Assembly (NCBI GenBank): GCA_016206925.1
Contig: JACQQS010000017.1
Location: 2,393 to 66,392 of the forward strand
Length of the DNA: 64,000 nt
Direction of reading: 5' to 3'
From: Candidatus Omnitrophota bacterium
GTDB taxonomy: Bacteria; Omnitrophota; Omnitrophia; Omnitrophales; JACQQS01
Below, piece by piece: positions 16,959-56,795 of the stretch (the stretch's first letter is position 1; each line of letters begins with the position of its first letter). The notes under the pieces were generated by a model. It saw only the letters and a program-made list of their open reading frames with translations, did not search any database and was not told the origin of the DNA. A program made the position numbers and the translations under genes.

Positions 16959-16968
16959 TAACATTGTA

Positions 16969-17015: not shown

Positions 17016-17035
17016 CACAAGTCGAAGGCGATGAA

Positions 17036-18747: not shown

Positions 18748-18753
18748 AGGAAT

Positions 18754-18810: not shown

Positions 18811-18822
18811 ATCAAAGAATGC

Positions 18823-19974: not shown

Positions 19975-19980
19975 AAGCAC

Positions 19981-20484
19981 ATGATCGCTGCATTTTATCT
20001 CATCTCTGTGGTTTTGATCGTCTCAGCGGTCCTTGCGGTTTCTCTACGCAATCTAATCTACTGTACACTGTGCGCATCGGTAGTCTTTATCAGCTCTGCC
20101 GCCCTCTTTTTTCTTCTGAAGGCGGACTTCATAGGCGTCGTTCAAATCCTCATCTACGTCGGCGCCGTTGCGACACTACTTTTATTTGCCGTTATGCTCA
20201 CGAAAAATCTGGTCAGCAGGCAATATTATGTCGGCCAAAAGAGAAAATGGTCTTACGGCATTTTTACGGCTTCGGCTGTACTTTGGGTGCTTATCGGTTC
20301 CATCCGTTCGCAGACAAATCTTGCGGAACTTGTCACAGCCGATCATCAACTTTCCGTCGTTTCGCTCGGAAAAGAAATGCTGACCGCGTTTTTGCTTCCT
20401 TTTGAGGTGGCGTCCCTCCTTTTAACAGCCGCCATGATCGGAGGTATCGTTATCGCCTTGGAGGAGAAAAAGAAGTCGTCATGA
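19981..20484 (+). CDS. nuoJ: complex I subunit J (copy 1)
   Basis: Polytopic, with VQILIYVGAVATLLLF and a C-terminal FEVASLLLTAAMIG. Confidence 0.85.
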   Translation: MIAAFYLISVVLIVSAVLAVSLRNLIYCTLCASVVFISSAALFFLLKADFIGVVQILIYVGAVATLLLFAVMLTKNLVSRQYYVGQKRKWSYGIFTASAVLWVLIGSIRSQTNLAELVTADHQLSVVSLGKEMLTAFLLPFEVASLLLTAAMIGGIVIALEEKKKSS

Positions 20485-20792
20485 CTATTCCGCTTTCGCA
20501 CTATTTGGCCGTAAGCGCGGCGCTCTTCTCGATAGGTCTCTTTGGAGCGCTTACACGCAGAAGCGCAATTATTGTGCTGATTGGAATTGAAATTATGATG
20601 AATGCCGCCAATTTGAATTTAATTGCTTTCTGGCGCTATTCGGACGGCACACGCGCAACCGGACAATTGTTCACGTTTTTCGGCATTACCATTGCGGCAG
20701 CCGAAGTCGCGGTCGGTTTGGCGATCGTTATCTCCGTTTACCGGCTATTTCAGTCTACAAACGTGAATGAAATCAGTGATATGAAGAAATAG
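20481..20792 (+). CDS. nuoK: complex I subunit K (copy 1)
   Basis: 103 aa, 3 TM helices. IGIEIMMNAANL and AAAEVAVGLAIV. Confidence 0.9.
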   Translation: MTIPLSHYLAVSAALFSIGLFGALTRRSAIIVLIGIEIMMNAANLNLIAFWRYSDGTRATGQLFTFFGITIAAAEVAVGLAIVISVYRLFQSTNVNEISDMKK

Positions 20793-20800
20793 GAGTGTGT

Positions 20801-20826
20801 GTCATTCCCACGAAAGCGGGGATGAC
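20801..20826. repeat. REP-like hairpin unit GTCATTCCCACGAAAGCGGGGATGAC between nuoK and nuoL
   Basis: Same unit family as 18754-18810. It is a self-complementary imperfect palindrome. Confidence 0.75.
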
Positions 20827-20836
20827 AAACTTAACC

Positions 20837-22870: not shown

Positions 22871-22873
22871 TCT

Positions 22874-27614: not shown

Positions 27615-28121
27615 GTGATTACTTTCTTATCTTTTATTTTCACCCTCGTCGGACTCACAACAGCCATTCTTGTGGTAACGAGCAAGGTTCCGATGAACGC
27701 CGCGCTGTTTCTCGTTGTGACTCTCTTCACCGTTGCGGCAAATTACGTTCTCCTCGGCGCTGAATTCCTGGCCGCTGTTCAGGTCATTGTCTACGCCGGC
27801 GCCATCATGGTGCTGATTATTTTTGTCATACAGCTTGTGGGTTTTCAACCTTCCAAGGACGGTTCCGTTCAGAAGCAAACCCCTATCGCCATCGTTGCCG
27901 CAGGCCTCCTATTCGTACAAATCGCTTTTTACACAGTCCGTTCGTTGACTCAACTAAACGGAATCCAGAAACCCGTCCAAGCCGCAGTCGACCACACGGC
28001 ATCCTTCAGCCAAACTCTATTCACGAAGTACCTGCTGCCTTTCGAAACGGCCTCGATACTTCTGCTCGTCGCCATTGTCGGAACGGTCCTGCTGGCACAA
28101 CACAAAGGCATCCGCGAATGA
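27615..28121 (+). CDS. nuoJ: complex I subunit J (copy 2)
   Basis: GTG start. [16 protein letters not shown] and [14 protein letters not shown]. Confidence 0.85.
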
Positions 28122-28420
28122 ACCTGGATACCATAACGCTCATATTTGGGACGGGCCTTTTTTTCATAGGTATAACAGGCGTTCTCATCCGGAGAAACGC
28201 CATTGTCGTCTTAATGTGTATCGAACTCATCCTGAACGGCGTCAACTTAACTTTCATCACATTCAGCCACATACATGGAAACCTGGCCGGCCAGGTTGCG
28301 GCTATTTTTGTTATTGTAGTTGCGGCAGCCGAAGCAGCTGTCGGGCTTGCTATTGTCATTGCTGTATTCCGCCGTCATCCTTCCATTAACATCGATGAAT
28401 TTAACGTGCTTAAATGGTAG
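28118..28420 (+). CDS. nuoK: complex I subunit K (copy 2)
   Basis: [12 protein letters not shown] and [12 protein letters not shown]. Confidence 0.9.
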
Positions 28421-30408
28421 CGCTTATTCCTTTACTTCCCGCTTTGGGTGCGGCCGTCAATGGCCTGTTCGGGCGAAGATACATCAAGGAAAACGCCCAT
28501 TGGGTTGCCGTTGGCGCCTGCGGTCTTTCTTTTCTGGCAGCTGTTTTTACTTTCACAAGCTTTCTACGCGAGCCGCAGAGCTACGAAGTGCGGATGTTTG
28601 AGTGGATTGCTGTAGATCCCTTGCGCATCGAACTGGCGTTCCTCGTTGATCCTCTAAGCATGCTTATGGCCATGGTTGTTACGGGAGTGGGTTTTCTCAT
28701 TCATATCTATTCGATCGGTTACATGCACGGCGACGGCGGATATCACCGCTATTTTGCTTACCTCAATCTTTTCATGACGGCCATGCTTCTTCTGGTCTTG
28801 GCCAACAATTATCTTTTGATGTTTCTCGGCTGGGAGGGCGTTGGGCTTTGTTCATACCTGCTCATTGGATTTTGGTTTCATAAAGATTCTGCCGCCAATG
28901 CCGCAAAGAAAGCTTTCCTCGTAAACCGGATCGGAGACGCCGGATTCATTTTGGCCCTTTTCCTAATTTATGGGCAATGCAAAAGCCTGGTCTTTCATGA
29001 TGTCATGTCCCAGGCACATGCTTTCTCAACCGGCTTGGCCACGGCTATTGGAATTCTCTTATTTGTCGGAGCCATGGGGAAATCGGCCCAGATTCCACTT
29101 TACGTATGGCTGCCGGACGCTATGGAAGGACCTACTTCTGTCTCCGCATTGATTCATGCGGCAACCATGGTCACGGCCGGTGTCTATATGGTGGCTAGAA
29201 ATTCGGCCATCTATGCGCTGGCACCGGCTGCACTTAATTTCATGGCTTCTGTCGGCGCAATTACCGCACTTTTTGCGGCAAGCATTGCCCTGGTTCAAAG
29301 GGACATAAAGAAGGTACTTGCTTATTCGACGGTAAGCCAGCTCGGTTACATGTTTCTCAGCTGCGGTGTGGGCGCTTATGTAAGCGGCATGTTTCATTTA
29401 ATGACACACGCATTCTTCAAAGGCCTTCTTTTCCTCGGATCCGGAAGCGTGATTCACGCGCTCGGCGGCGAACAAGACATGCAGCACATGGGTGGTTTAA
29501 GAAAACATATGCCCATTACCGCAGCAACGTTTACCATCGCAACCCTCGCCATCGCCGGAATTCCGCCGCTTGCCGGCTTCTGGAGCAAGGATGAAATCCT
29601 GGCGGAAACCTTCAAGAACGGGCATAAACTCCTCTGGGGAATCGGTGCATTAACGGCGCTCATGACATCCTTCTACATGTTCCGCCTGCTTTTCCTGACC
29701 TTCTACGGAAAGTCGCGCGTTCACCATGACAAGGAACATCATCTTCATGAATCGCCCCGGACCATTACGATTCCTCTTTCGATACTTGCCTTTCTTTCGA
29801 TTTTTGGCGGCGTCCTGCCCGGCTTCCCTCCCGAACGAGGCTGGATCCACGGTTTTCTTTCTCCGGCGATCTCAAGCGTTCACCATGCGAAGGAAATCCT
29901 GCATGGCGCAGCCGAACACGGCGCGCATGCCCTGTCATTGCTGGACTTGACATTGATGGCTGTTTCTATCGGCGCGGCGCTGATGGGTTTGGCTGCCGCG
30001 TGGTACTTTTATCTCATCCGGCCGGCGCTTCCCGGACAATGGGCTTCCCGATTGAAATCAATTCACACACTCCTATTCAATAAATATTGGGTGGATGAAA
30101 TATATCTCAGTGTATTTGTGCGTCCCCTGCTTAAGCTCTGTAACCGCCTGTGGGATTTTGATCTGCAGGGCATTGATGGAATCGTAAACGGAGCATCACG
30201 CGTTGCCGTAAAAAGCGCTGAAGAGTCGGGCAGATTTGATCTCAAATTTATCGATGGCGTTATAAACGATATCGGAAAACTTTTCGACAAGTGGCACGAC
30301 ATCTTAAGACGGTGGCAAACGGGTTTCGTACAGAATTATGCGCTCGTCATGGTCATCGGTGTATTGGTTCTGGCAACCAGCATGTTTTTCATCCCATATC
30401 ACTTTTGA
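28414..30408 (+). CDS. nuoL: complex I subunit L (copy 2) with a lengthened lateral-helix region
   Basis: [23 protein letters not shown]-terminal [11 protein letters not shown].../[11 protein letters not shown]... 26-aa tandem repeat. Confidence 0.9.
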
Positions 30409-30416
30409 AAAATTTA

Positions 30417-30516
30417 AAATTAAAAGTGAAAAATGTAAAAGAAAAAACTAAAGAAATTTATTAAAGCAAAAAAGTTCAAAAAGCTCTTTATCTTTTTACT
30501 TTTTCATTTTTAATTT
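30417..30516. repeat. AT-rich imperfect inverted repeat (about 26-bp arms, 48-nt loop) between nuoL2 and nuoM
   Basis: AAATTAAAAGTGAAAAATGTAAAAGA (30417-30442) versus the reverse complement of TCTTTTTACTTTTTCATTTTTAATTT (30491-30516). One mismatch and two 1-nt indels. Confidence 0.65.
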
Positions 30517-30530
30517 CTAAGAGGATTTTT

Positions 30531-32102
30531 ATGACACATATCTTTGGCACTCCCATTCTCACGCTTTTATGCTTCTTGCCCCTCATCGGAACGCTGGCTA
30601 TCGTGATTTTCACGCGTAAAGATGAGGAGAAAAAAATCAAAAACATCGCGCTGTGGTTCTCGGTGGCGGCTTTTCTCATCTCGCTTTTGATCCTTCCCCG
30701 TTTTCGAACTGACACGGCGGAAATGCAGTTTGTAGAACGAGCCGAATGGATTCCCGCTATCGGGGCAGAATATCTCCTGGGCATCGACGGTATCAGCATT
30801 CTGCTTATCCTGCTGACCACACTTCTAACCGTCATCGCTGTTTTATCTTCATCTACAGCCATTACTGATCGGCTAAAAGAATACTATGGCTCGCTGCTTT
30901 TGCTTGAAACGGGGATGCTCGGAGTATTCATGGCTCTTGATTTCGTTCTCTTTTACGTTTTCTGGGAAGTCATGCTGGTGCCCATGTATTTTCTGATCGG
31001 AATTTGGGGTGGACCCAACCGGCTTTACGCGGCCATCAAATTTTTTCTCTATACGCTCTTCGGGAGCGTTTTGATGCTCCTCGGAATTCTGGCGCTTTAT
31101 TTCCTGAATGCAGATCCGGCATTCGGCAGCGGGGAGCATACATTCAATATGATTACACTTTTTAATGTCCAGCTGCCTTTCCATTTTCAATGCTGGATAT
31201 TTGCCGCGTTCTTTATCGGATTTGCCATCAAGGTCCCTGTCTTCCCGTTTCACACATGGCTGCCGGACGCCCACGTCGAAGCGCCCACCGCGGGAAGCGT
31301 CATCCTCGCCGGCGTTCTGCTAAAAATGGGTACGTACGGCTTCATTCGCGTATGCCTTCCGATGCTGCCCCAGGCATCGGAATTTTTTGCGCCTTTTGTC
31401 GCTGTGTTGGCCATGATCGGCATAGTTTACGGCGCCTTAGTGGCCATGGCGCAAACCGATATCAAAAAATTGGTGGCCTACTCAAGCGTGAGCCATCTTG
31501 GTTTTGTAATGCTCGGGCTTTTTGCCATGAATTCCCAGGGGATAACGGGCGGCGTGCTTCAGATGATCAATCACGGCATATCGACAGGGGCGCTCTTCTT
31601 GCTGGTGGGCATTATTTACGAAAGAAGGCATACGCGGAAAATACAGGAATTCGGCGGCCTAGCGCATGTCATGCCCGTTTATGCGGCGCTCTTTGCCGTC
31701 ACCCTATTCTCATCCATCGGCCTCCCGGGTTTGAACGGATTTGTCGGTGAGTTCCTTATTTTGCTCGGCGCGTTTCAAAAGGAACTCTGGTACGCCGCTG
31801 TGGCTGTTTCCGGAATTGTGCTCGGCGCCGGATATATGCTGTGGCTTTATCAAAGAGTCATGTTTGGAACGGTCACGCATCCCGAAAACAAAATGTTAAA
31901 GGATTGCTCGAGGCGCGAGGTTCTCTACATGGCACCTCTCATCATACTCATGTTGTGGATCGGGATTTACCCGAAACCTTACCTCCGCTTGATTGAATCA
32001 AGCGTTATGGGCACGATTCAATCTCTAAAGCGCCCAAGCGCCGGCCCAGATTTGATGGCTATGGCTTCGCAGACGCCGCCGGAAACTGCGGCACTTATCT
32101 AA
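30531..32102 (+). CDS. nuoM: complex I subunit M (cluster 2)
   Basis: WLPDAHVEAPTAGSVILAGVLLKMGTYGFIR. Strong RBS AAGAGGA. Confidence 0.9.
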   Translation: MTHIFGTPILTLLCFLPLIGTLAIVIFTRKDEEKKIKNIALWFSVAAFLISLLILPRFRTDTAEMQFVERAEWIPAIGAEYLLGIDGISILLILLTTLLTVIAVLSSSTAITDRLKEYYGSLLLLETGMLGVFMALDFVLFYVFWEVMLVPMYFLIGIWGGPNRLYAAIKFFLYTLFGSVLMLLGILALYFLNADPAFGSGEHTFNMITLFNVQLPFHFQCWIFAAFFIGFAIKVPVFPFHTWLPDAHVEAPTAGSVILAGVLLKMGTYGFIRVCLPMLPQASEFFAPFVAVLAMIGIVYGALVAMAQTDIKKLVAYSSVSHLGFVMLGLFAMNSQGITGGVLQMINHGISTGALFLLVGIIYERRHTRKIQEFGGLAHVMPVYAALFAVTLFSSIGLPGLNGFVGEFLILLGAFQKELWYAAVAVSGIVLGAGYMLWLYQRVMFGTVTHPENKMLKDCSRREVLYMAPLIILMLWIGIYPKPYLRLIESSVMGTIQSLKRPSAGPDLMAMASQTPPETAALI

Positions 32103-32105
32103 CTC

Positions 32106-33578
32106 ATGAACCAGACGCTTCCGAATTTTCCGTTGTCCATCCTGTATCCCGAAATGATCTTAACCATTTCGGCATGCGTGCTCATTTTTCTGGCACGCGC
32201 TTTTGCGCGGGCGCATAAACACACGCTCAGCAGCATTGCCTTTTTTTCCGTTATAGCTGCGATGGGCTGCGCGGGAAGTCTTTGGAATTTCCCGAGGTGG
32301 GAGAATTTGATCGAATTCTTTCTGATCGACCGATATGCCATTTTCTTCAAACTGGTGCTTCTGGTCATATGTGCGCTGACTATCCTCATTTCCAAACGGT
32401 TTTTGTCGGATACCGACACGGAGCGCGGCGAGTATTACGGCCTGATTCTACTCGCGACCATCGGTATGATGATCATGGTTTCCGGGGCAGATCTCATCAC
32501 GATTTACCTGGGCCTCGAGACTATGGCCATCGCAAGCTACATTCTCGCCGCGTATTTCCGATCGGACGAACGGTCATCCGAAGCCGGTTTGAAATATTTT
32601 CTTCTGGGTGCGTTCAATTCGGGGATTATCCTCTACGGCATGGCCTTGCTTTACGGCGCAACGGGTACGTTTAACCTGGCCGAAATGCACCGGATCGTAT
32701 CGGGTTTATCCGGACCCGCCGAACTTCGTCTTCTCTATTTTTCATTAATACTTCTCGTAGCGGGATTTGGTTTCAAAATAGCGGCGGTACCTTTTCATAT
32801 GTGGGCTCCCGATGTCTATGAAGGAGCCCCGACGCCTGTCGCGGCATTTCTGTCCGCGGGTTCGAAAACTGCGAGCCTGGCTGTCCTCATCCGGGTCTTC
32901 ACCGTTGCTTTCGGTTTATTTACTGAGCTTTGGCAGCTATGGATTGCCTATATTTCCGGTCTCACGATGCTATTCGGTAATATCGCGGCACTAAGACAAA
33001 CCAACGTTAAAAGAATGCTGGCCTATTCAAGCATCGCGCACGTGGGCTACATGCTCCTTGGCCTGGCCAGCGGAATCGAGATGGGATCTTCCGCCGTTTT
33101 AATGTATGCGTTCGTTTATCTGTTCGCAAATATCGGCCTCTTTGCTTCTCTTATTCTTCTTACCCGGAATGGCGTCCCCAAAGAATCGACCGCTGATTTC
33201 TCGGGTCTTTCGAGAAGACACCCTCTGATTGCATTTGCCGTCACCATATTTCTCTTATCCCTCACGGGTATTCCCCCTACCGCCGGTTTTATCGGAAAAT
33301 TTTATCTTTTCATGGCAGCCGTCAAATCCGGTTACATAAAGCTCGCCGTGGTGGGCGTTCTCGCAAGCGTCATTTCTCTCTTCTATTACATGCGGATTGT
33401 CATGGCCATGTACATGGAAAAACCGGCGGACACCGATGCTGCGGCGCTTCAGCCTTCAACAAGTTTAGGATACGCTTTCTCCATCATGGTCTTTGTCATT
33501 TTGGCTGTAGGAATTTATCCCGGCCCCCTGCTCGATCTTGCACGTGAGTCCCTATCTTCGATAAAGATTTTGAGTTAA
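32106..33578 (+). CDS. nuoN: complex I subunit N (copy 2)
   Basis: HMWAPDVYEGAPTPVAAFLSAGSKTA and MLAYSSIAHVGY. Confidence 0.9.
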   Translation: MNQTLPNFPLSILYPEMILTISACVLIFLARAFARAHKHTLSSIAFFSVIAAMGCAGSLWNFPRWENLIEFFLIDRYAIFFKLVLLVICALTILISKRFLSDTDTERGEYYGLILLATIGMMIMVSGADLITIYLGLETMAIASYILAAYFRSDERSSEAGLKYFLLGAFNSGIILYGMALLYGATGTFNLAEMHRIVSGLSGPAELRLLYFSLILLVAGFGFKIAAVPFHMWAPDVYEGAPTPVAAFLSAGSKTASLAVLIRVFTVAFGLFTELWQLWIAYISGLTMLFGNIAALRQTNVKRMLAYSSIAHVGYMLLGLASGIEMGSSAVLMYAFVYLFANIGLFASLILLTRNGVPKESTADFSGLSRRHPLIAFAVTIFLLSLTGIPPTAGFIGKFYLFMAAVKSGYIKLAVVGVLASVISLFYYMRIVMAMYMEKPADTDAAALQPSTSLGYAFSIMVFVILAVGIYPGPLLDLARESLSSIKILS

Positions 33579-33845: not shown

Positions 33846-35126
33846 ATGAGAAGAAATAGTGCGGCGCTGTTACCAATCCTATTAATGGCCGGTTTGATAT
33901 GTACGCCTATGGCTTTCGCGGATGAGGGCCCGGATGATTTAAAGGCTGAGATTAACGCTCTTAAGAATCGTATAAATCAATTGGAAACTAAACTTGCTAC
34001 CGTTCAACCCGCCGCGCAAATTCCAGGCGGACATGTCGGATTGGAGGCAGCAGCACCTTCTTTAGAAGTTCCCAGCCTTGTGCGGGGAATAGGCATTTCT
34101 GGCTACGTAGATACCATGTACACGCATAATTTTAACACGCCGGATTCCATTACCAATGTCGGAAGAGTTTTTGATCGGACCGCAAACGGTTTCAACATGA
34201 ATGCCGCTGAGGTCGTTATCCAAAAACCCGTTTCGGCGGACAGCCGTGCCGGTTTCCGTGCCGATATATTTACGGGTAATGATGCGGAAGTAATCGGATC
34301 GGCAGGACTAGGCCTCGGGACCAATGAATTTGAGATTCAACAAGCGTTCGTGGAACTCCTTGTACCCACCGGCAACCTTGCCTCCTGGATGAACGATATT
34401 GACCTAAAAGCGGGTAGGTATGTCACCATGAACGGCGCCGAAGTGATTGAAAGCAAGGACAATTGGAATACCTCACGCGGTCTTTTATTTGGATACGCCA
34501 TCCCTTTCACACACACCGGTATCCGAAGCACGTACACGTTTGATAACGGGTGGGACATATGTCTCGGCGTTAATAACGGCTGGGATGTTACTGACGATAC
34601 CAATAACGGAAGGACCATTGAGTCACACATTGGCTTAAATAGCATTGAGCTGCCTTGGGATTCTTCCATTACCGTCGGCTATCAGTACTACGGCGGCCCT
34701 GAACGTGCAGCGCAAGATACCGATTGGCGTCACCTACACGATATCGTGGCCATATTGAAGACACCTTGGGAGCCCCTGACGTTAATGTACAACTTGGACT
34801 ACGCTTTTGAGGCAAACCTGATTGGCGATAATGCCAAAGGCGATTGGTGGGGGCATGCCGTTTATGCCAGATATCAGTTCACGGATAAGTGGGCAGCTTC
34901 CGTCCGTGCTGAAGTTCTTAACGATGAGGATGGTGTCCGTGTTGTCGCCGGCACACAAGCCGAGTGGTATGAAATTACCGGTACGTTAGAATATAAGCCG
35001 TGGGAAAACACCATTACCCGTCTTGAATTACGTTCTGATCATGCCGACAAAGATGTGTTTACTGGAAACAACCAGGTGAATGATAACCAGACATCGCTCA
35101 GCAGCGAAATAATGTATCTATTCTAG
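33846..35126 (+). CDS. outer-membrane beta-barrel porin-like protein
   Basis: Signal peptide, short coiled coil (LKAEINALKNRINQLETKL), alternating amphipathic beta-strand pattern rich in Tyr/Gly/Asp/Asn, and a C-terminal aromatic residue (MYLF). Confidence 0.65.
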   Translation: MRRNSAALLPILLMAGLICTPMAFADEGPDDLKAEINALKNRINQLETKLATVQPAAQIPGGHVGLEAAAPSLEVPSLVRGIGISGYVDTMYTHNFNTPDSITNVGRVFDRTANGFNMNAAEVVIQKPVSADSRAGFRADIFTGNDAEVIGSAGLGLGTNEFEIQQAFVELLVPTGNLASWMNDIDLKAGRYVTMNGAEVIESKDNWNTSRGLLFGYAIPFTHTGIRSTYTFDNGWDICLGVNNGWDVTDDTNNGRTIESHIGLNSIELPWDSSITVGYQYYGGPERAAQDTDWRHLHDIVAILKTPWEPLTLMYNLDYAFEANLIGDNAKGDWWGHAVYARYQFTDKWAASVRAEVLNDEDGVRVVAGTQAEWYEITGTLEYKPWENTITRLELRSDHADKDVFTGNNQVNDNQTSLSSEIMYLF

Positions 35127-35248
35127 ATGGGTGAACAACGGCGGCTTGTTATTTTACAGTTAAATTACGTTTGTGAACCGTTTTACGCGATCCTAGGGAC
35201 TTCCCCCTCCCGCAAAAATGTTCGCAGCCGGTAAGAGAAAATCTTTTG

Positions 35249-35285
35249 GCGAGGCAGGCTGCGGGTGTTTCGGATCGCGTAAAAC
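35249..35285. repeat. 37-nt direct repeat, copy A (downstream of orf178)
   Basis: GCGAGGCAGGCTGCGGGTGTTTCGGATCGCGTAAAAC is identical to 35832-35868 except for one T/C difference. Confidence 0.9.
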
Positions 35286-35821
35286 TACTTGCGTAACTGG
35301 CTTTTTACCAGCACATAGGTGTCCGGTCTTTCAGGAATGCGCTTAAGACAAATTCTGTAACGTCTGTCTTTGGGTGCCGCAGATTCAATTCCAAACGTCT
35401 TAAACGGATCCGAAACCGCGATATTCAGCCAGCCTTTTGGTGCAGTTTTTTCCGGGTCTTCAAAATTCAGCGTGGCCACTTTAAGTATGTCTTTATCCTG
35501 AAGGGCCTGCTGGAATTGTTCGAGTTTTGATGGGCCTCCTCTCTTCAGCAGCGTAAACTCACCGAGGATCACCCTGTTTATCTTAAAGAGAACAACTGCT
35601 GCGGGCTTTCCCGACGTTTCAAGCTCTTGTTCAATAGCGTCAACGGTTTCTCCGCTCTCGATGGGTTTCACATAAATCGGCGTTGCGTCCAATACAACAT
35701 CATATTCGCGCATAAACCACGAAGCTTCTGAGATTCCCAAAGAGAATAGAGTTCCACAGGTCAAGAGGGTTATAACTTCAAGGAACGTTAAGCGGTTGAT
35801 AAAATGAAATCTTAATTTCAT
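35285..35821 (-). CDS. membrane-anchored hypothetical protein, last gene of the minus-strand nuo operon
   Basis: 178 aa with an N-terminal hydrophobic anchor. The ATG sits 5 nt after the nuoI stop. No recognisable motif. Bracketed by the 37-nt repeat. Confidence 0.5.
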   Translation of the reverse strand: MKLRFHFINRLTFLEVITLLTCGTLFSLGISEASWFMREYDVVLDATPIYVKPIESGETVDAIEQELETSGKPAAVVLFKINRVILGEFTLLKRGGPSKLEQFQQALQDKDILKVATLNFEDPEKTAPKGWLNIAVSDPFKTFGIESAAPKDRRYRICLKRIPERPDTYVLVKSQLRK

Positions 35822-35826
35822 GGAAA

Positions 35827-36399
35827 TTACTGCGAGGCAGGCTGCGGGCGTTTCGGATCGCGTAAAACGATAGCGCCGTGGTTTTCCGGATTCAGCAGAT
35901 CATCCATCGTCAGATACATTCCCTCACGGCTGTAGGCGGCTATATCCAAGATCTGCGTATCCATTCGAATCGCGTCTTCCGGACAGGCTTCCACGCAAAA
36001 TCCGCAATACACACATATCCCCAAATCAATGTCAAAACGCTTTGGGCGCTTCTCGATGTTCGGATCCGGATGTTCATCAGCAACAATATAAATACAATGC
36101 GCCGGGCAAACCGTTTCGCACATCATACAAGCCACGCAACGGGGAGAGCCGTTACTCCTCTTCGTCAGGCGATGGCGGGATCTAAGCCGCGGAGCAAGGG
36201 GCCGCTTTTCCTCCGGATATTGATAAGTCACGGCGGCGGGAACATCCTTAAACAGGTCAAATTTGTGAAGAATATGCAATGTCAGATTTCTGAAAAAATG
36301 CCAGCCCGTAAGCGCCAAGCCCTGAAAAATGGCGGGAAAATAAATCCTGACCATGAACGACATGTTGGGCTGTTTCACTACTTTCGTTGTGACCGGCAT
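35827..36399 (-). CDS. nuoI: complex I subunit I (copy 2)
   Basis: CVACMMCETVCP and CVYCGFCVEACP. Confidence 0.9.
   Translation of the reverse strand: MPVTTKVVKQPNMSFMVRIYFPAIFQGLALTGWHFFRNLTLHILHKFDLFKDVPAAVTYQYPEEKRPLAPRLRSRHRLTKRSNGSPRCVACMMCETVCPAHCIYIVADEHPDPNIEKRPKRFDIDLGICVYCGFCVEACPEDAIRMDTQILDIAAYSREGMYLTMDDLLNPENHGAIVLRDPKRPQPASQ
35832..35868. repeat. 37-nt direct repeat, copy B (the 3' coding end of nuoI copy 2)
   Basis: GCGAGGCAGGCTGCGGGCGTTTCGGATCGCGTAAAAC encodes the nuoI C-terminus ...VLRDPKRPQPAS. Confidence 0.9.
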
Positions 36400-36401
36400 A
36401 G

Positions 36402-37487
36402 TTAATTTCCTACCATGACCAAAATCACCGCTGTTGCCAGGAGATTCGCTAGAGAAAGCGGCAGCATCATTTTCCAGCCCACTTTCATAAGCTGGTCATA
36501 ACGAAACCGCGGGAGCGTCCATCGAATGAGCATGAAAAACCAGCAGAAAGCCAGAACTTTTGCGGTAAACGACCCAATCTGCATCAGAGTAACCAAAAGA
36601 TGCGGCAAGCCCAAAACAAGCGTGCCTCCCCAATGGAAACCGCCCGATCTCAGGAACGGAACCTGCCAACCGCCAAAAAAAAGCGCTGTAGACATGCACG
36701 CCAAGAGGATCGTCTCCACATAATCCGTGAAGAAATACATGCCGAACTTCATGCCGCTATATTCCGTAAAGTAGCCGATGATTTCCGACTCGGCTTCCGG
36801 AATATCGTAGGGAATGCGTTTTGTTTCTGCGATTCCGGCCGCCAAAAAGAGCAAAAATCCGAGCGGCTGCATGAACACGCCCCAGGCAGGCAGGAAGCCA
36901 AATAAAAGCCGGCCCTGCCACCGGATCATTTCCTGCAGATTCAAAGTGCCGTAGATCATCACCAATCCCATAATGGTAAGCCCGAGAGTAACTTCGTAAG
37001 AAATCATCTGTGCTGAAGCACGGAGGCCGCCGAGGAAAGCGTAATTGTTGTTGGACGAATAACCCGCCAATACGACACCGTAGACAACCATGGAAAGCAT
37101 GGCCAATATGTAAAGCACGCCTATATTCAAATTGGCCGGCTGAAGCCCGATTTCCATGTCGCCAATGCGCAGCACGTCACCAAAGGGAATGGCAGCGAAT
37201 GTAATGAGCGCAAAAACCATGGACAGGAATGGCGCTAATGTATGAAGCACGCGGTGTCCGGAAGGCGGAACAAAGTCTTCCTTAAAAAACATCTTGATGG
37301 CATCCGCCAAAGGATGGAATAGCCCCAATAATCGAAACGGACCGATATGGGCCCTATTCGCCCCGATGCGGTCCTGCATCACAGCGCTCTGCTTTCGTTC
37401 AAGCCAGGTGTGAAGCGCGGCAAGATTAATCACATTAAAGATCATGATGCCGGAGAGTATCGTCGAGCTGATCACATGTTCTAACAT
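36402..37487 (-). CDS. nuoH: complex I subunit H (copy 2)
   Basis: WLERKQSAVMQDRIGANR and KRIPYDIPEAESEIIGYFTEYSG. Confidence 0.9.
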   Translation of the reverse strand: MLEHVISSTILSGIMIFNVINLAALHTWLERKQSAVMQDRIGANRAHIGPFRLLGLFHPLADAIKMFFKEDFVPPSGHRVLHTLAPFLSMVFALITFAAIPFGDVLRIGDMEIGLQPANLNIGVLYILAMLSMVVYGVVLAGYSSNNNYAFLGGLRASAQMISYEVTLGLTIMGLVMIYGTLNLQEMIRWQGRLLFGFLPAWGVFMQPLGFLLFLAAGIAETKRIPYDIPEAESEIIGYFTEYSGMKFGMYFFTDYVETILLACMSTALFFGGWQVPFLRSGGFHWGGTLVLGLPHLLVTLMQIGSFTAKVLAFCWFFMLIRWTLPRFRYDQLMKVGWKMMLPLSLANLLATAVILVMVGN

Positions 37488-39061
37488 AAAGCGGCTTTCT
37501 CCTGAGCCATGCGGCCCAGGCGATCAAAATTCATCCCTTTAAAAGCGTGCGCCTTTTCAGCCATGCGTGCGAAGATCTCCCGAGCCTTGGGGCCGGGACA
37601 CTTTATGCCCAGTTTTACAGCCAAGTCATGCAAAATTTGAATGCCCTCCCTGGCTTCCGGAAGCGGCGCAAAAGCCGGCGTAAACCGCTGGAGAATGCCG
37701 TCACAATTCGTGAAAGTTCCTTCCTGTTCGGCATAAACAGCAGCCGGCAGCGTCATGGAACAAAGCGGCGCGGTCTCATTCCGATTACTGCCTTGGTAAA
37801 CGACAAACTCAAGCTGTTTAAGCAGCTTCCTGGCATCATCCCCAAATAGAGAAACGATGTCCTGCCCGAAAATATACAAAGCTTTTAGCTTCCCCTTCTC
37901 CGCTTCGCCGGAAAGCAAGTCCACGATATTTTCCGCATAAGAAAAACCGAGGGCGCGTGCGCCCGCCGTATTCGGATTCTTGTCGGCTTTGATTAAAAAC
38001 GCGTCTTGATAACCCAGCGCGTTCGGGCGAACCAAAAACAAACGGCTCCTATCAAATAACTGTGCAAAAATCTGTTCCGCCAAAAAGAGCTCTTCGTTTG
38101 ATTGCTGCGGGCTCAGCAGAAATGCCGCGGATTGAGGCGAAAGCGCAGCCAAATTCTTCAGCTTGGATGCGAGCGTTTTCACAGCCGACGGCCAATCTTC
38201 AGCACCTTTGACTAGTAAAATCCTGTTGTCGTCAATAAATTTATAATTGTACCGGCCCTCGTCGCAAATCCACCATTTGTTGATCTCCTCGTTAAACCTG
38301 GGCTTAAGACGCATCACACGTTTCGGCTCAACGCGATGAGATTTTCGGTCATTGTGGTGAATCTCAATGCTGCAACCGCGGCTGCAGCCCGGACAAACCG
38401 ACGGTGAATTCTCTAAATACCAAACACGGCATTTAAACCTGAAATCGCGGTCTGTCAAAGCTCCTACAGGACAAATGTCGGCAACATTTCCAGAATAGGG
38501 ATTGACAAATTCCTTGCTCACGACAACTTCGGAGTGATCGCCCCGGTTGACGATGCCAAACTCGTGTGACTTGGTGATCTCATCGGTAAAACGAACACAG
38601 CGCGAGCACAAAATACAGCGCTCCTGATCCAGCATAATGGTCGGGCCGATGGGAAACGCCTTTTTCTGCTTCTTGACTTTGTTCTCGTTAAACTTCGGAT
38701 CGTAAAGCCCGAACTTCATGTAATAATCCTGGAGATAGCATTCTCCCGCTTGATCGCAAACCGGGCAGTCAAGAGGATGGTTTACGAGTAGAAACTCAAG
38801 AATGTGGGAACGGACCTGCTTTACCTGTTCGGTGTCTGTCCTGACCACCATTCCTTCGGTCGAGAGTGTTTGGCAGGAAATCGCAGGCTTCGGAGCTTTT
38901 TCTATTTCCACCATGCAAATGCGGCAATTGCCCGCAATAGAAAGTCCAGGGTGATAGCAATAGCGCGGAACGTCTATCTTTAGCTTCTCGCAGGCCTGAA
39001 GAACCGTTGTTCCATCTGCTACAGTAATTTTTTTCCCGTCTATGGTCAGTGTAGGCATCAA
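37481..39061 (-). CDS. nuoG: complex I subunit G (short form, 526 aa)
   Basis: N-terminal 2Fe-2S (CYHPGLSIAGNCRICMVE), HPLDCPVCDQAGEC and CILCSRCVRF. The C-terminal molybdopterin-like domain looks abbreviated. Confidence 0.85.
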   Translation of the reverse strand: MMPTLTIDGKKITVADGTTVLQACEKLKIDVPRYCYHPGLSIAGNCRICMVEIEKAPKPAISCQTLSTEGMVVRTDTEQVKQVRSHILEFLLVNHPLDCPVCDQAGECYLQDYYMKFGLYDPKFNENKVKKQKKAFPIGPTIMLDQERCILCSRCVRFTDEITKSHEFGIVNRGDHSEVVVSKEFVNPYSGNVADICPVGALTDRDFRFKCRVWYLENSPSVCPGCSRGCSIEIHHNDRKSHRVEPKRVMRLKPRFNEEINKWWICDEGRYNYKFIDDNRILLVKGAEDWPSAVKTLASKLKNLAALSPQSAAFLLSPQQSNEELFLAEQIFAQLFDRSRLFLVRPNALGYQDAFLIKADKNPNTAGARALGFSYAENIVDLLSGEAEKGKLKALYIFGQDIVSLFGDDARKLLKQLEFVVYQGSNRNETAPLCSMTLPAAVYAEQEGTFTNCDGILQRFTPAFAPLPEAREGIQILHDLAVKLGIKCPGPKAREIFARMAEKAHAFKGMNFDRLGRMAQEKAALC

Positions 39062-39112
39062 TCAACCTCAAAATTCAAACGTCACCTTTTTCTTTTTTCC
39101 TTTCTACTTTAC

Positions 39113-40393
39113 TCAAGTTACAAGTTCCGGCTTTAAATCACAAGCGCCGTGCCGTACGTGATGTTCGAATTCAGAATAAAACTTTTCCACATAGCTGCCG
39201 AGCGGCATGGCAGCACCGTCTGCGAGCGCGCAAATGGTCGTACCGGTCAGATATTTCGCTGTTTCCGCAATCGATTTCAAATCTTCTGTCCGGCCCTTTC
39301 CGGCAAGCACACGGCCCACAACCTTTTCCATCCATCCCGTTCCCTCACGGCAGGGCGAACATTGACCGCAGGATTCATGCGCAAAGAAACGCATCGTAAT
39401 GTAAAGTGCGCGGACCATGCACACAGTTTCATCCATGACCATAACTCCGGCTGAGCCAAGCATGCTCCCTTTTACCTTAAGAGAATCAAAATCCATGGGA
39501 ATATCAATTTCATCCGCCGTCAATACTGCCGCAGAAAGCCCGCCGGGAACAACGGCCTTGAGCCTATTCCCATTCCTGATCCCGCCGGCAGAATCATAAA
39601 TAATACTGCGAAGCGGCGTTCCCAACGGGAGTTCATAAAGGCCGGGTTTTTTGACATGCCCGCTCACGCCGAATAATCTGAGCCCCCCGTTTTTTGCCGA
39701 GCCAAGAGCAGCAAACCACGCCCCTCCTTTTAAAATGATGCTCGGCAAATACGACAGGGTTTCCACATTATTAATCACGGTCGGACAGCCCCAGAGACCC
39801 GAAACCGCCGGAAAAGGCGGCTTTAGCCGGGGAAAACCTTTCTTGCCTTCAAGCGATTCGAGAAGCGCCGTTTCTTCGCCGCAAATATAGGCCCCGGCCC
39901 CGCGATGAATTACGATATCCAGATCAAACGGTTTTCCGAAAATTTGCGTTCCAAGAAAACCTTTTTCACGCGCTTCAAAAATGGCCTTTTCCAGCCGTTC
40001 AATCGACTTATCGTATTCCCCCCGAACATAAATGTAAGCTCGGTGGCAGCCGACCGCATAACAGCAAATGATCATGCCCTCGAGCATTAAATGCGGAACG
40101 CGCTCCATAATATAGCGGTCTTTAAATGTGCCAGGCTCGCCTTCATCTGCATTTACCGCAAGGTAAACCGGCTTGCCGGAGTTCTTCGGAATAAATCCCC
40201 ACTTCATTCCCGTTCCAAATCCGGCGCCGCCCAGACCGCGCAAGTCGGATTGCTTCACTTCTTGAACAATCCGGTCGGGCGTCATCGAAATCACGACTTT
40301 GCGTGCGGCTTCGTACCCGCCATTCGCCAGGTAACGATCGATCGAGAGCGCGTTCTCATTTTCAATAAATTTCGAAAGAATGCTTTCAGCCAT
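39113..40393 (-). CDS. nuoF: complex I subunit F (NADH/FMN-binding)
   Basis: GAGAYICGEETALLESLEGK and ESCGQCSPCREG. Confidence 0.95.
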   Translation of the reverse strand: MAESILSKFIENENALSIDRYLANGGYEAARKVVISMTPDRIVQEVKQSDLRGLGGAGFGTGMKWGFIPKNSGKPVYLAVNADEGEPGTFKDRYIMERVPHLMLEGMIICCYAVGCHRAYIYVRGEYDKSIERLEKAIFEAREKGFLGTQIFGKPFDLDIVIHRGAGAYICGEETALLESLEGKKGFPRLKPPFPAVSGLWGCPTVINNVETLSYLPSIILKGGAWFAALGSAKNGGLRLFGVSGHVKKPGLYELPLGTPLRSIIYDSAGGIRNGNRLKAVVPGGLSAAVLTADEIDIPMDFDSLKVKGSMLGSAGVMVMDETVCMVRALYITMRFFAHESCGQCSPCREGTGWMEKVVGRVLAGKGRTEDLKSIAETAKYLTGTTICALADGAAMPLGSYVEKFYSEFEHHVRHGACDLKPELVT

Positions 40394-40868
40394 GCAATTT
40401 TTCCTGAATCAGATGATCAACTTTCGCCTCATCCAACGGCCCGACATATTTTTTATCTACGCGCAGCATGGGCGCGATTTCACAGGCGCCGAGGCATTCA
40501 ACCATTTCATACGAGAATTGGCCGTCCGGCGTAACTTCTCCCGGCTTGATGCCGCATTTCTTTCCGAAATATTCCCCCAGCGACTCGCCGCCAAGAAGCG
40601 AGCAGGTCAAAGTCCGGCAGAATTGAAAATGCCTCTTTCCAAGCGGTTTTTGCGCATAAAGTGTGTAAAAACTTAAAACTTCCCGGACTTTGATCAACGG
40701 CACCGATAGAAATTCGGAAACGATTTCCTGGACTTCGTCCTTAATGCAGCCGTCCCTGTTTTGAAATAAGTGTAAAATCGGAAGTAAAGCAGCCTGCCTG
40801 GCCGGATAATTTTTCAGTATTTTTTCGGCACTCGGCAGGAGATCGGTCGGAAACGTTTTCGCGCTCAT
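40386..40868 (-). CDS. nuoE: complex I subunit E (2Fe-2S)
   Basis: FCRTLTCSL and ECLGACEIAPM cysteine motifs. Confidence 0.9.
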   Translation of the reverse strand: MSAKTFPTDLLPSAEKILKNYPARQAALLPILHLFQNRDGCIKDEVQEIVSEFLSVPLIKVREVLSFYTLYAQKPLGKRHFQFCRTLTCSLLGGESLGEYFGKKCGIKPGEVTPDGQFSYEMVECLGACEIAPMLRVDKKYVGPLDEAKVDHLIQEKLHG

Positions 40869-42250
40869 CGGTCCAGCTCACCGCCGATCATGTTCACAGA
40901 CCCAAACGTGGGAATAATGTCGGAGACGGTCCAACCGATACAGGTTAACGGAAATGCGGCCAAAATGGTAAAACATGGGGGACGGACGCGGACCCGATAA
41001 GGCCGGTCGGTGCCGTCACTCACGATATAGAAACCTAATTCCCCATTAGCGCCTTCGACCGCCTGATACGTATCGCCTTTAGGGGGTCGGATGCCGTGGC
41101 CGTACATGACCAATTTAAAATGCTGCATGAGCCCTTCAATATTTCCGTAGGTATCCTCTTTCGGAGGCAGGATAGCCCTCTTTTCTTCCGTCTGAACGGC
41201 ATTAAAGTTTGCTCTAGTTCCGCCTTCAAGCGTCGGATCGACAACCGCTTGGACCTCCAGAAGCCCGCCTGTTCTGCCCATCTTGGCTTCGTCGACCATG
41301 AACTCTGCGGGAATAGCGCGCCCCTCCATGTCCACAGCAACGGGTCCCTTGGGCATCTGATCGAGGCATTGCTCAACGATGCGGATGCTTTGCTCCATTT
41401 CTTCCATGCGGACAAGATAACGGTCGAAATTGTCGCCGTATTCTCCGACAGGAACGTCAAAGTCGAGACGGTTATATATCAGGTACGGGTTGTCCTTGCG
41501 TACATCGTAATCAACGCCCGTCGCGCGCAGGAATGGTCCCGTAACGCTGTAGGCGACGGCGTCCTCCTGGCTGATGGTGCCGATTCCTTTCATGCGGTCA
41601 ATAAAGATACGATTCTTGGTGAGCAATGTGTGGACTTCTTGATTAACTTTCCGCACTTCTTTAAGCCGTGTTCTGCACTTTTCAGCGAAACCGGCTGGCA
41701 AATCGGATTTAAGCCCGCCCACCCGCGTATATGAAATGGTTAGACGTGCTCCCGTAACCTCTTCAATCAGCTCCCACAAATACTCGCGCGCCTTGATCAT
41801 GTAGAGAAATACGGTGAACGCGCCGACCTCCATTGCAGAAGCGCCGACACAAGTTAAATGATCGGTAATCCGGGAAAGTTCGCTCATGATAACCCGTATG
41901 TAATCGCAGCGCTCCGTGGTCTTGATACCGAACAGTTTCTCCACGGCCATGCAATATCCGACGTTATTGATAAGCGGAGAGACATAATTCAGGCGGTCGG
42001 TGTACGGAATGACTTGAAGATATCCGCCTTCCTCGCACATTTTTTCAAATGCGCGGTGCAAATAACCTATGTGTACTTCGCAATCTTTCACCACCTCGCC
42101 GTCAAGCTTAAGGATAAGGCGGATAATGCCGTGCATGGCCGGATGTGACGGACCCATGTTCAGCATCATTTCTTTAGTCTCAAGCGCGTCAGCCTCGCGC
42201 GTGGCGGTGTCGCGCACGCCTTCGGTTTTGTTTAATTCCGTGATATCCAT
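40865..42250 (-). CDS. nuoD: complex I subunit D (copy 2) with an internal insertion of about 50 aa
   Basis: GPSHPAMHGIIRL, RLNYVSPL and [16 protein letters not shown]...SVNMIGGELDR. An extra segment lies between GPV and LPPKE. Confidence 0.9.
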   Translation of the reverse strand: MDITELNKTEGVRDTATREADALETKEMMLNMGPSHPAMHGIIRLILKLDGEVVKDCEVHIGYLHRAFEKMCEEGGYLQVIPYTDRLNYVSPLINNVGYCMAVEKLFGIKTTERCDYIRVIMSELSRITDHLTCVGASAMEVGAFTVFLYMIKAREYLWELIEEVTGARLTISYTRVGGLKSDLPAGFAEKCRTRLKEVRKVNQEVHTLLTKNRIFIDRMKGIGTISQEDAVAYSVTGPFLRATGVDYDVRKDNPYLIYNRLDFDVPVGEYGDNFDRYLVRMEEMEQSIRIVEQCLDQMPKGPVAVDMEGRAIPAEFMVDEAKMGRTGGLLEVQAVVDPTLEGGTRANFNAVQTEEKRAILPPKEDTYGNIEGLMQHFKLVMYGHGIRPPKGDTYQAVEGANGELGFYIVSDGTDRPYRVRVRPPCFTILAAFPLTCIGWTVSDIIPTFGSVNMIGGELDR

Positions 42251-42259
42251 CTTTAGAAA

Positions 42260-42805
42260 TCAGTTCCGCGGCCCAATAAGCGGCTGCCTATAGTTTACGG
42301 GGTAATCTTTTCTGAGCGGATGCCCCTGGAATCCTTCATACATCAGAATTCTCTTTAGATCCGGATGCCCCGTGAACCGGATTCCAAACATATCCCAAAC
42401 TTCCCTTTCAAACCAGTTCGCAATCGGCCACACATCGACCAAGCTGGGTACTGCCGGATCTTCCTCGGAAACATTCGTCTTCACACGCAAACGGTGTTTC
42501 AGCTTTATGGAATACAGGTGATATACAACGTAAAATCTCGGGACTAGACCCATCTTGAGTCCGTCGACGGCGGAAAGGTCGGCCAACATCTTGAAATCCG
42601 TGCGCTTATCGTCCCTCAAAAAACGCATGATCTCCGGCACAGATCCTTTAGCCACCGACGCCTCCCAATCTCCCAAATTTACGCAGACACTAAGCACCTT
42701 TCCGGAAAACTGGGATTCAAGCAACGTCAAAACTTCCGGAAGTAACTCGCTTTGGCTGACCGCCCCAAGCTTATCGAGCGGCGAGGATGGCGGCGTGGAG
42801 CTCAT
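42260..42805 (-). CDS. nuoC: complex I subunit C (copy 2)
   Basis: EREVWDMFGIRFTGHPDLKRILM. Confidence 0.9.
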   Translation of the reverse strand: MSSTPPSSPLDKLGAVSQSELLPEVLTLLESQFSGKVLSVCVNLGDWEASVAKGSVPEIMRFLRDDKRTDFKMLADLSAVDGLKMGLVPRFYVVYHLYSIKLKHRLRVKTNVSEEDPAVPSLVDVWPIANWFEREVWDMFGIRFTGHPDLKRILMYEGFQGHPLRKDYPVNYRQPLIGPRN

Positions 42806-43278
42806 GCGATTTCTTGACGCTGGTGCTGGATTTTTTCTTGAAGTTTAATGAGACCGTCCAGAACCGTTTCAGGACGCGGGGGACAGCCCGGGATGTACAC
42901 ATCAACGGGCAGGATGGTGTCGATGCCCATTACGGTAGCGTAGTTATCATAGAATCCACCAGTGCAGGTGCAAACGCCAAAAGCCACAACCCATTTTGGA
43001 TCGCACATCTGATCGTAAATTCTGCGAAGCACTGGCGCAATTTTATGGCTGACCGTGCCGACCACAAAAAGCACATCCGCCTGGCGAGGAGAAAATCTCG
43101 GAAGGCCTGCGCCAAATCGGTCTACGTCATAGTGAGAACACGCAGTGGCCATATATTCCATGCCGCAGCATGCGGTCACAAACGGATATTGAAATATGGA
43201 ATACTTGCGTGCCCAGCCGATGGCGGCATCAAGCTTCGTGGTAAGAAAAGAAGGAAGGCCGGAATTTCCAAAGGCCAT
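42802..43278 (-). CDS. nuoB: complex I subunit B (copy 2)
   Basis: ATG at 43278, 2 nt after the nuoA stop. ACCGMEYM, GVCTCTGGFY and PGCPPRPE. Confidence 0.9.
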   Translation of the reverse strand: MAFGNSGLPSFLTTKLDAAIGWARKYSIFQYPFVTACCGMEYMATACSHYDVDRFGAGLPRFSPRQADVLFVVGTVSHKIAPVLRRIYDQMCDPKWVVAFGVCTCTGGFYDNYATVMGIDTILPVDVYIPGCPPRPETVLDGLIKLQEKIQHQRQEIA

Positions 43279-43280
43279 GA

Positions 43281-43655
43281 TCAATAATCCGATCGGTGCC
43301 AGTCCAACACACCTTGTTTCCAGACATAAGCCAGACCGACGATCAGCACGAGCGCAAAAGGCAGAAATTCCATCAGGCCGAACAGCCCGAGTTTCCGGAA
43401 AACAACGGCCCAAGGAAAAAGAAAGATCAACTCCACGTCAAATATAATAAACAGCATGGCCACCAGATAAAATTTAACCGGTAACCGGCCTACCGGGAGC
43501 ATGAATGGCTTCTCCCCGCACTCGAAAGGTTCACTCTTGACCGGGTTCGGCCGTTTCGGCCCCAGGACCGAAGAAAGCCAGATAAATAAGCCGCCCAGTG
43601 TCGCAGCCATTAAACTAATTGCAACCACCCCAACATATTCCTTCATGTCGTCCAT
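43281..43655 (-). CDS. nuoA: complex I subunit A (copy 2)
   Basis: FECGEKP motif, three TM helices. Confidence 0.85.
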   Translation of the reverse strand: MDDMKEYVGVVAISLMAATLGGLFIWLSSVLGPKRPNPVKSEPFECGEKPFMLPVGRLPVKFYLVAMLFIIFDVELIFLFPWAVVFRKLGLFGLMEFLPFALVLIVGLAYVWKQGVLDWHRSDY

Positions 43656-56750: not shown

Positions 56751-56795
56751 AGTCAGGACGATCTACGTGACTTGTTCCATTACATGTCATGCAAA

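Follow-up and report, generated by a model that had tools for sequence, protein, structure and literature searches.

In a 64,000-nucleotide stretch of DNA from a Candidatus Omnitrophota bacterium (contig JACQQS010000017.1; hereafter the window), a small gene, orf178, follows nuoI, the final canonical gene of an operon for complex I (NADH-quinone oxidoreductase), and is bracketed by two copies of a 37-nt repeat derived from the nuoI 3' end. Our results make it likely that orf178 was inserted after nuoI together with a duplication of the nuoI 3' end, and that this duplication preserved both the C-terminus of NuoI and a selected hairpin. The product of orf178 would be exported, with a role that is probably unrelated to complex I. 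The elements concerned are listed below, where repeats and hairpin arms are described in the mRNA (minus-strand) sense; domain calls were made by a Pfam scan of the ~57 open reading frames (ORFs) of the window.

35827-36399, minus strand: nuoI, encoding the 190-aa 2x[4Fe-4S] subunit, final canonical gene of the nuoA-I operon (ORF list, Pfam Fer4)
35832-35868, minus strand: copy B of the repeat, nuoI codons 178-189 (VLRDPKRPQPAS) plus 1 nt (repeat comparison)
35822-35826, minus strand: spacer TTTCC, 5 nt from the nuoI TAA to the orf178 ATG, without a Shine-Dalgarno sequence
35285-35821, minus strand: orf178, with a predicted product of ~145 aa after removal of the signal peptide (dN/dS, family hidden Markov model (HMM))
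35249-35285, minus strand: copy A of the repeat, a non-coding duplicate of the nuoI 3' end whose stop codon has since been mutated away
35272-35285, minus strand: hairpin 5' arm (GUUUUACGCGAUCC), the first 14 nt of copy A (pairing probability 0.96 in a 774-nt fold)
35194-35271, minus strand: hairpin loop of 78 nt, corresponding to the ancestral nuoI 3' untranslated region (UTR), with the conserved blocks TTACCGGCTGC and GGAGGGGGAAGTCC (alignment with contigs L001 and L093)
35180-35193, minus strand: element C, the hairpin 3' arm (GGAUCGCGUAAAAC); homology with the relatives stops just past it

The direct repeat comprises 37 nt, of which 36 are identical between 35249-35285 and 35832-35868, with 583 nt from start to start. 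A third element, GTTTTACGCGATCC at 35180-35193 (element C), is exactly complementary, in reverse orientation, to the 14 nt at the start of either copy. It is located downstream of the arm in copy A, separated from it by 78 nt, and can pair perfectly with copy A over 14 bp and with copy B over 15 bp. The 14-mer has three matches in the window, where 0.04 would be expected. Repeat, spacing and third element had been noticed at these positions in an earlier, sequence-only reading of the window, as had the complementarity of copy A to 35180-35193 and the start of orf178 5 nt past the nuoI stop, and all of them were recovered here. The repeat is also not dispersed, as no additional copy with up to three mismatches was found in the 64 kb (and none in 100 shuffles), and the 14-mer was absent from the 93 other loci checked. 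Two details had to be adjusted. Copy B does lie in the nuoI 3' end, but instead of being the last 12 codons it covers codons 178-189 plus the first base of Q190. Copy A is non-coding as described, but it does not merely abut orf178: it shares the last base of the orf178 TAG, an overlap of 1 nt.

To find relatives of this locus, we selected the nuoI proteins nearest to that of the window that carry the tail …HPENHGAI[IV]LRDP.RP… and traced them to their contigs. Two of them, L093 (nuoI 78% identical) and L092 (77%), do not harbour orf178 and have a convergent gene 80-144 nt past nuoI. In L093, nuoI is directly followed by the context of copy A (TTACCGGCTGC … GGAG.G … GGATCGC.TAA). After the nuoI TAA this contig reads GATTACCGGCTGC…GGAGAG…GGATCGCTTAA, which is homologous to the window 3' of copy A; in the alignment, GATTACCGGCTGCAAGCG…GGAGAGTTCCCTTGGATCGCTTAAGAA after the stop of L093 corresponds to …TCTCTTACCGGCTGCGAAC…GGAGGGGGAAGTCCCTAGGATCGCGTAAAAC after copy A in the window, and copy A itself aligns with the nuoI 3' end of this empty site. 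In a third relative, L094 (nuoI 78%), the sequence after the stop, ATCTTCTCT, matches GATTTTCTCT after copy A, and the contig ends there. Relatives with nuoI directly before the copy-A context and without orf178, which the sequence-only reading had proposed to look for, are thus represented by L093 and, for the first nucleotides, by L094. L092 has a different 3' UTR with a 28-bp perfect palindrome and a textbook bidirectional terminator. In this contig (5036-5155), the palindrome, with a 16-nt loop, lies directly past the nuoI stop and is followed by the intrinsic terminator (AAAAAACCCCCGC…GCGGGGGTTTTTT). In L093, the window and L001 this position is taken by the UTR and hairpin, which have been replaced in L092, possibly through insertion of a palindromic element.

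Contig L001, an independent assembly from a groundwater metagenome, is a second filled site. It shows the same order of nuoI, orf178 homologue, copy A, loop and complement, with copy B at 8961-8986, copy A at 9591-9616 and element C at 9655-9670, and its stem is perfect over 16 bp with a loop of 48 nt. The same nuoI-orf gene order was found on a third contig (P0002). Since this arrangement recurs in assemblies made independently by different projects, an assembly artefact is ruled out. In a neighbour-joining tree of NuoI, the window and L001 are sisters, and the other three members of the clade do not have orf178. With the empty-site relatives branching outside this pair, a single insertion in the common ancestor of the window and L001 is the simplest explanation. 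The duplication was longer than the 37 nt seen in the window: in L001 another 21 nt have been retained on the 5' side (62% identity), and in the window another 13 nt on the 3' side, which together indicate a duplication of at least ~65 nt. As the stop codon of copy A has been mutated, recombination of copy A with copy B would not yield native nuoI any more.

The conservation of the repeats was then compared with the neutral divergence between the window and L001, which is near saturation (synonymous divergence pS 0.60-0.73; fourfold-degenerate sites 42% identical). Element C is identical at 14/14 positions and the 24-nt core of copy A at 22/24, while the loop and the sequence past element C contain many indels and mismatches. 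The chance that 14 neutral positions are all identical is ~5e-6 (0.42^14). The retention of the copy A core and of element C despite near-saturated synonymous sites shows that the hairpin is under selection. In L093, element C is identical at 12/14 positions. The arm TTTTACGCGATCC is intact in all three loci bearing element C (window, L001 and L093); it has three synonymous changes in L092, the relative with the replaced UTR, and 4-5 changes in L094, where the contig stops before the expected position of element C.

The pairing itself is also present at the empty site. In L093 the nuoI 3' end and the downstream complement are paired at 12/13 positions, with one G·U pair and one mismatch, and this stem is also listed as an 11-nt inverted repeat with 91% complementarity. 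Minimum free energy structures of all three sequences with element C contain the stem, and in partition-function folds of the 774-790-nt region the pairing probability between copy A and element C was 0.96-0.99. As judged from these sequences, the hairpin is ancestral, with a 5' arm that was originally located inside the nuoI coding sequence, and is held by selection. The earlier suggestion of an ancestral nuoI terminator stem therefore holds for the ancestry, as the nuoI end of L093 pairs with its downstream complement, but a terminator is unproven and there is no U-tract. Likewise, the description of the locus as the scar of an insertion agrees with the empty sites as far as the insertion is concerned, but copy A and element C are not merely a scar, given their conservation near saturation.

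We propose the following course of events, in which the insertion and duplication are documented by the relatives compared above, and the later retention of the copy A arm and element C by their conservation. In the ancestral state, the 5' arm would have been part of the last nuoI codons, with element C ~60-80 nt downstream. Before the split of the window and L001 lineages, a pre-existing gene for a small Sec-exported protein or lipoprotein would have been inserted right behind the nuoI stop, in an event that duplicated at least ~65 nt of the nuoI 3' end. Copy B would be the native C-terminus that nuoI kept, and copy A would have been placed beyond the new gene, beside the old 3' UTR. By supplying the 5' arm, copy A would have rebuilt the hairpin at the new end of the operon. 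The orf178 protein would be translated through coupling to nuoI termination and subsequently exported to the periplasm.

The hairpin most likely acts as an RNA structure at the 3' end, either stopping exonucleases or marking the limit of the transcript, possibly of both converging transcripts. This is suggested by its position: it lies at the operon end, between two convergent genes and exactly where the homology of the relatives stops. Acting at the RNA level, it would define or protect the end of the nuo transcript, and it may also end the convergent transcript. An intrinsic (Rho-independent) terminator was rejected, as a pattern scan of 34900-36100 detected none and the 14-bp stem with its 78-nt loop is followed by GGUUCACAAACG. 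No Rfam match was obtained in the same region at E<=5.

Several points weigh against our interpretation. The full architecture of copy B, copy A and element C was read at the DNA level in two loci (n=2; the window and L001). No double compensatory change was found among the three stems, and the conservation of the hairpin could reflect a sequence-specific DNA or protein-binding site and not pairing. With a loop of 48-78 nt and no U-tract, the 3'-end role is deduced from sequence. Moreover, third codon positions of copy B are unusually conserved between the window and L001, with an identity of 0.87 over the last 15 codons (13/15) versus 0.51 over the whole gene. Synonymous change is thus suppressed in copy B although it hardly pairs with element C, and we can account for this only ad hoc. 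Probably, occasional gene conversion from the constrained copy A keeps both copies near-identical; a G-to-A change common to both L001 copies and the 13-nt extension that matches copy B in the window only are hints of such conversion. A constraint from translational coupling (TAA-N5/6-ATG, no Shine-Dalgarno sequence) would also explain the conservation of copy B. Finally, no integrase, transposase, resolvase or recombinase was detected among the ORFs of the window, nor was any agent found there that is able to duplicate ~65 nt or more.

The coding status of orf178 was assessed by comparison with its L001 homologue. The ratio of nonsynonymous to synonymous substitution rates (dN/dS, ω) was 0.13, and 0.09 for the mature part, compared to 0.04 for nuoI and nuoH. 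This shows that orf178 is a genuine gene; a dN/dS near 1, which the sequence-only reading had named as evidence to the contrary, was not observed. The homologue in L001 carries an in-frame TAA (K to stop) at 9365-9367, beyond which the frame is still conserved (ω 0.11), and its truncated 118-aa product has been recorded three times. This stop could be a recent loss of function, a polymorphism or a sequencing error. Translation of orf178 appears to be coupled to nuoI termination, as judged from the TAA-N5-ATG junction without a Shine-Dalgarno sequence. The spacer measures 6 nt in L001, and there is a 6-nt gap on the P0002 contig. A small AU-rich hairpin, AUGAAAU-UAAG-AUUUCAU, spans the orf178 start codon (35803-35821, minus strand). 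It is weaker in L001, where it contains a G·U pair, and may merely reflect the Lys/Phe-rich N-terminus of the signal peptide. The public annotation apparently starts orf178 too late, at M37 (142 aa); in homologues the upstream start is kept and position 37 is Arg.

The N-terminus of the orf178 protein (MK…hydrophobic…SEA|S) resembles a cleavable signal peptide and not the membrane anchor that had been proposed before, and it is kept in the two nearest homologues. The protein itself gave no match to Pfam, NCBIfam or PDB sequences. An AlphaFold2 model based on an alignment of 62 sequences reached a predicted local distance difference test (pLDDT) score of 88 and shows a helix followed by a β-rich domain; with an alignment of 3 sequences the pLDDT was only 34. 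When the model was compared with the PDB using Foldseek, only a weak OB/NTR/TIMP-like likeness was found (E>=0.03, TM ~0.33), and no fold was assigned. One sub-threshold-looking match in a profile search against the PDB was an engineered protein and was set aside.

Although a word-indexed search returned 3 proteins only, an exhaustive HMMER search yielded 96 homologous clusters at 50% identity, 83 of them at E<=1e-10, which argues against orf178 being an orphan or de novo gene. Family members have ~165-190 aa, and the majority carry a lipobox or a signal peptide. They are similar over their full length, including the N-terminal signal sequence, and share the motifs DVVLxxxPIxVK, VDAxE, GGPS, LTLDFxDP, FGI and YKLYLKR; the family HMM scores the orf178 of the window at E=2e-65. 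None of 62 family members had a meaningful Pfam match. On the basis of these sequences, orf178 belongs to an undescribed family whose products are exported proteins or lipoproteins of ~170 aa. The protein had been described as having no recognisable motif, which remains correct with respect to Pfam and NCBIfam but overlooks a conserved family with shared motifs, and with 96 clusters of homologues it is not lineage-specific at the family level.

We read the gene neighbourhoods of six family members elsewhere and found them in unrelated contexts. In ppx-ppk1-HisPhos operons of two species, the family genes overlap the end of a His_Phos_1 phosphatase gene by 4 nt. These members (L084 6001-6501, L086 3611-4111 and L087 6001-6576) represent the sole recurrent family context seen. 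Further members lie before a gene for a TPR protein, after a pair of response regulator and histidine kinase genes, and after a YkuD gene. We also searched the 80 GTDB loci whose nuoI is closest (59-74% identity), translated in six frames, with the family HMM; no member was found within 4 kb of nuoI, and the repeat of the nuoI 3' end was not found in these loci either. Linkage of the family to nuo genes was seen only in the window, L001 and the P0002 contig. No flanking duplications were found around other family members; the duplication is therefore no property of the gene family.

In a neighbouring clade, another kind of small lipoprotein ORF (122-145 aa) follows nuoI in L004 (~2699-3068) and L026 (~3768-4206), with an overlap of 4 nt at the nuoI stop. 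These loci have a similar nuoI tail, and the ORFs, with a start offset of -4, look helical or TPR-like by eye. The slot after nuoI seems to be filled repeatedly by small exported proteins. A scan of JGI metagenomes with the orf178 alignment returned only a Rho factor, matched via the NFEDPEK search pattern, and was discarded as an artefact. In L082 (1085-1204), LLKVSTINFEDPEKT in the Rho N-terminal domain resembles ILKVATLNFEDPEKT of orf178, probably by coincidence.

The sequence-only reading had named orf178 a candidate for an accessory or assembly subunit of complex I that is specific to the lineage; in this view, the gene would have joined the operon because its product works with the enzyme. 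The tight, coupling-type junction with nuoI in all three carrying lineages and the purifying selection on orf178 are in line with this proposal, and extra ORFs inside nuo operons are known from Rhodobacter capsulatus (PMC4758237). We nevertheless regard it as unlikely. Other family members reside in ppk1-HisPhos operons, beside a two-component system, after YkuD or before a TPR gene, and one of the ppk1-HisPhos members belongs to a metagenome-assembled genome (MAG) whose nuoI is on a different contig. Among the 80 closest nuoI loci, none has a family member, and the in-frame stop in L001 suggests dispensability. In addition, members throughout the family have kept an N-terminal signal peptide or lipobox, which predicts a periplasmic location. 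NuoI and the peripheral arm lie in the cytoplasm, and of complex I only the periplasmic face of the membrane arm would be within reach. The proposal is thus weakened by both the genomic distribution and the predicted export of the family, and orf178 probably has a role unrelated to complex I.

When an integrase inserts an element, direct repeats of such a size (37 to ~65 nt) typically remain and reconstitute the 3' end of the target gene. The repeats could accordingly be attL/attR remnants of a site-specific integrative element or cassette that entered at the nuoI 3' end and brought its own copy of this end; all of it but orf178 would later have been deleted, or orf178 would be mobilised in trans. 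In agreement with this, they bound the insert precisely and include the target-gene 3' end. However, the scanned ORFs do not include an integrase, transposase or resolvase, the insert consists of a single 0.58-kb ORF, and duplications do not flank the other family members. The 14-mer is not dispersed, and a tblastn search of a plasmid collection gave no match. Moreover, with copy A lacking a stop codon, excision would not restore nuoI. We therefore give this origin little credence.

Element C might also pair alternately with copy A (local) or copy B (long range, with orf178 and its start site looped out) and in this way act as an RNA switch that controls orf178 expression or transcript processing. 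Both copies are perfect partners of element C, the third positions of copy B are identical at 13/15 sites across lineages, and a single site in L001 is altered alike in both copies. In the equilibrium folds of 774-790 nt, however, the pairing probabilities of copy B with element C were only 0.03 and 0.005, compared to 0.96-0.99 for copy A. The Rfam search detected no ligand-binding or known regulatory RNA, and gene conversion or translational coupling can explain the conservation of copy B. Such a switch is very improbable. Taking the more ambitious possibilities together, it is doubtful that copies B and A and element C form a selected device (an RNA switch that sets nuo:orf178 expression or decay) or that orf178 is a periplasm-facing partner of complex I. 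If the latter were true, orf178 would be the first periplasm-facing bacterial complex I partner subunit of such kind.

Finally, the polarity could be reversed, with orf178 and its repeats being older and L093, L094 and L092 having lost orf178 when homologous recombination of copy A with copy B deleted it. Direct repeats of 37 nt would readily permit such a deletion, which would leave exactly the sequence of the empty site. Nevertheless, the loci without orf178 branch outside the window and L001, so that two or three losses would be needed versus one gain, and the gene is not at nuoI in any of the 80 more distant relatives. The duplication would also still require an earlier insertion. We consider such losses highly improbable and retain insertion in the common ancestor of the window and L001.

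Other mobile elements were rejected on the basis of their anatomy. A transposon, insertion sequence (IS) or miniature inverted-repeat transposable element does not fit a duplication of 37 to ~65 nt or more, a 14-mer that occurs three times in the window only and the absence of a transposase domain. Repetitive extragenic palindromic (REP) and IS200/IS605 (TTAC target) elements disagree in anatomy, copy number and the absence of the enzyme. An integron cassette is excluded by arms that misfit attC in order and sequence, by the single hairpin and by the lack of an integrase in 64 kb. For a diversity-generating retroelement, no reverse transcriptase was found, and the 8 mismatches of the 47-nt L001 repeat are of mixed types.

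Extra ORFs in nuo operons and insertions flanked by a duplicated gene end are already known kinds of arrangement. The nuo operon of Paracoccus denitrificans also carries unidentified reading frames (URFs). The proteobacterial URFs are likewise non-canonical ORFs, which are co-transcribed there with complex I genes. They lie inside the nuo operon, as in Rhodobacter capsulatus (PMC4758237), whereas orf178 has been added behind nuoI, where a split operon ends, with the insertion scar and the empty site visible, and encodes a predicted exported protein of a family found mostly outside nuo clusters. Campbell-type or integrase insertions into tRNA, tmRNA and protein genes similarly leave flanking repeats, of which the upstream one is the functional 3' end and the downstream one is non-coding. 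Here, in contrast, there is no integrase, a single 0.58-kb ORF and no sign of mobility, and the downstream copy is kept by selection as a hairpin arm.

The hairpin also has known counterparts. Stem-loops at 3' ends (REP elements, bacterial interspersed mosaic elements (BIMEs) and non-canonical terminators) share with it the long perfect stem at an operon end, the convergent region and the drifting flanks. Unlike REP and BIME sequences, the hairpin described here is single-copy, its ancestral 5' arm lies in coding sequence, and it has a 48-78 nt loop and no U-tract. Integron cassettes with their attC sites likewise consist of a promoterless single ORF followed by an imperfect palindrome. However, compared to attC (R'' RYYYAAC … R' GTTRRRY), the arms GTTTTAC…GTAAAAC show the opposite order of GTT and AAC. 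There is moreover one hairpin with two 5' arms, no IntI and no cassette array.

The case is therefore not a new kind of system but a well-documented example of operon growth in one narrow Omnitrophota lineage, and its interest is modest. It lies in the documented empty and filled sites, the duplication that preserves the hairpin and the undescribed family of exported proteins. The operon would have gained a cistron without damage, with the duplicated gene end keeping both the C-terminus and the hairpin arm that lies in coding sequence. The orf178 family is fairly widespread and confidently modelled (pLDDT 88), lacks an entry in Pfam and gave no close counterpart among PDB folds, and could merit a description at the level of a domain of unknown function. 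The current picture of complex I is unchanged by the orf178 insertion.

As for the genomic setting, the genes for the 14-subunit complex I are split at the window locus. Two further genes flank the region described above:

36402-37487, minus strand: nuoH, directly upstream of nuoI
33846-35126, plus strand: gene for a BBP2/OmpL-like porin, convergent (Pfam PF07642, E=3e-74)

On the minus strand (35827-43413), Pfam matches confirm nuoB to nuoI, and nuoA is presumed to lie upstream of nuoB. These genes converge on nuoJ(K)LMN (27615-33578, plus strand) and the BBP2-type porin gene, which shares an intergenic region of 158 nt with the orf178 side. This split and convergent arrangement makes nuoI the last canonical gene of its operon, and the convergent layout is common to ~10 related genomes. 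The closest protein matches of the locus belong to a Candidatus Omnitrophica MAG, and the nuoI protein is a 100% match to 'NADH-quinone oxidoreductase subunit I' of a Candidatus Omnitrophica MAG at NCBI. The annotated start of nuoI is apparently too late, at M13 (178 aa), as homologues keep the upstream start.

A second complex-I-type set without EFG was found at 15793-27473 (plus strand). It comprises nuoB, C, D, a nuoI paralogue (18112-18747), H, J and L as well as three additional NuoM/N-like antiporter subunits, and is directly followed by nuoJ(K)LMN of the 14-subunit set. An operon for a V/A-type ATPase (subunits I, E, C, A, B and D; 6730-15253, plus strand) lies directly upstream of the EFG-less cluster. 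Elsewhere in the window and unrelated to the insertion, an ORF6N-domain protein is encoded at 1686-2195 (plus strand), and a LuxC-like acyl-CoA reductase and a LuxE-like acyl-protein synthetase are encoded beside a class-III aminotransferase at 55464-57947 (minus strand).

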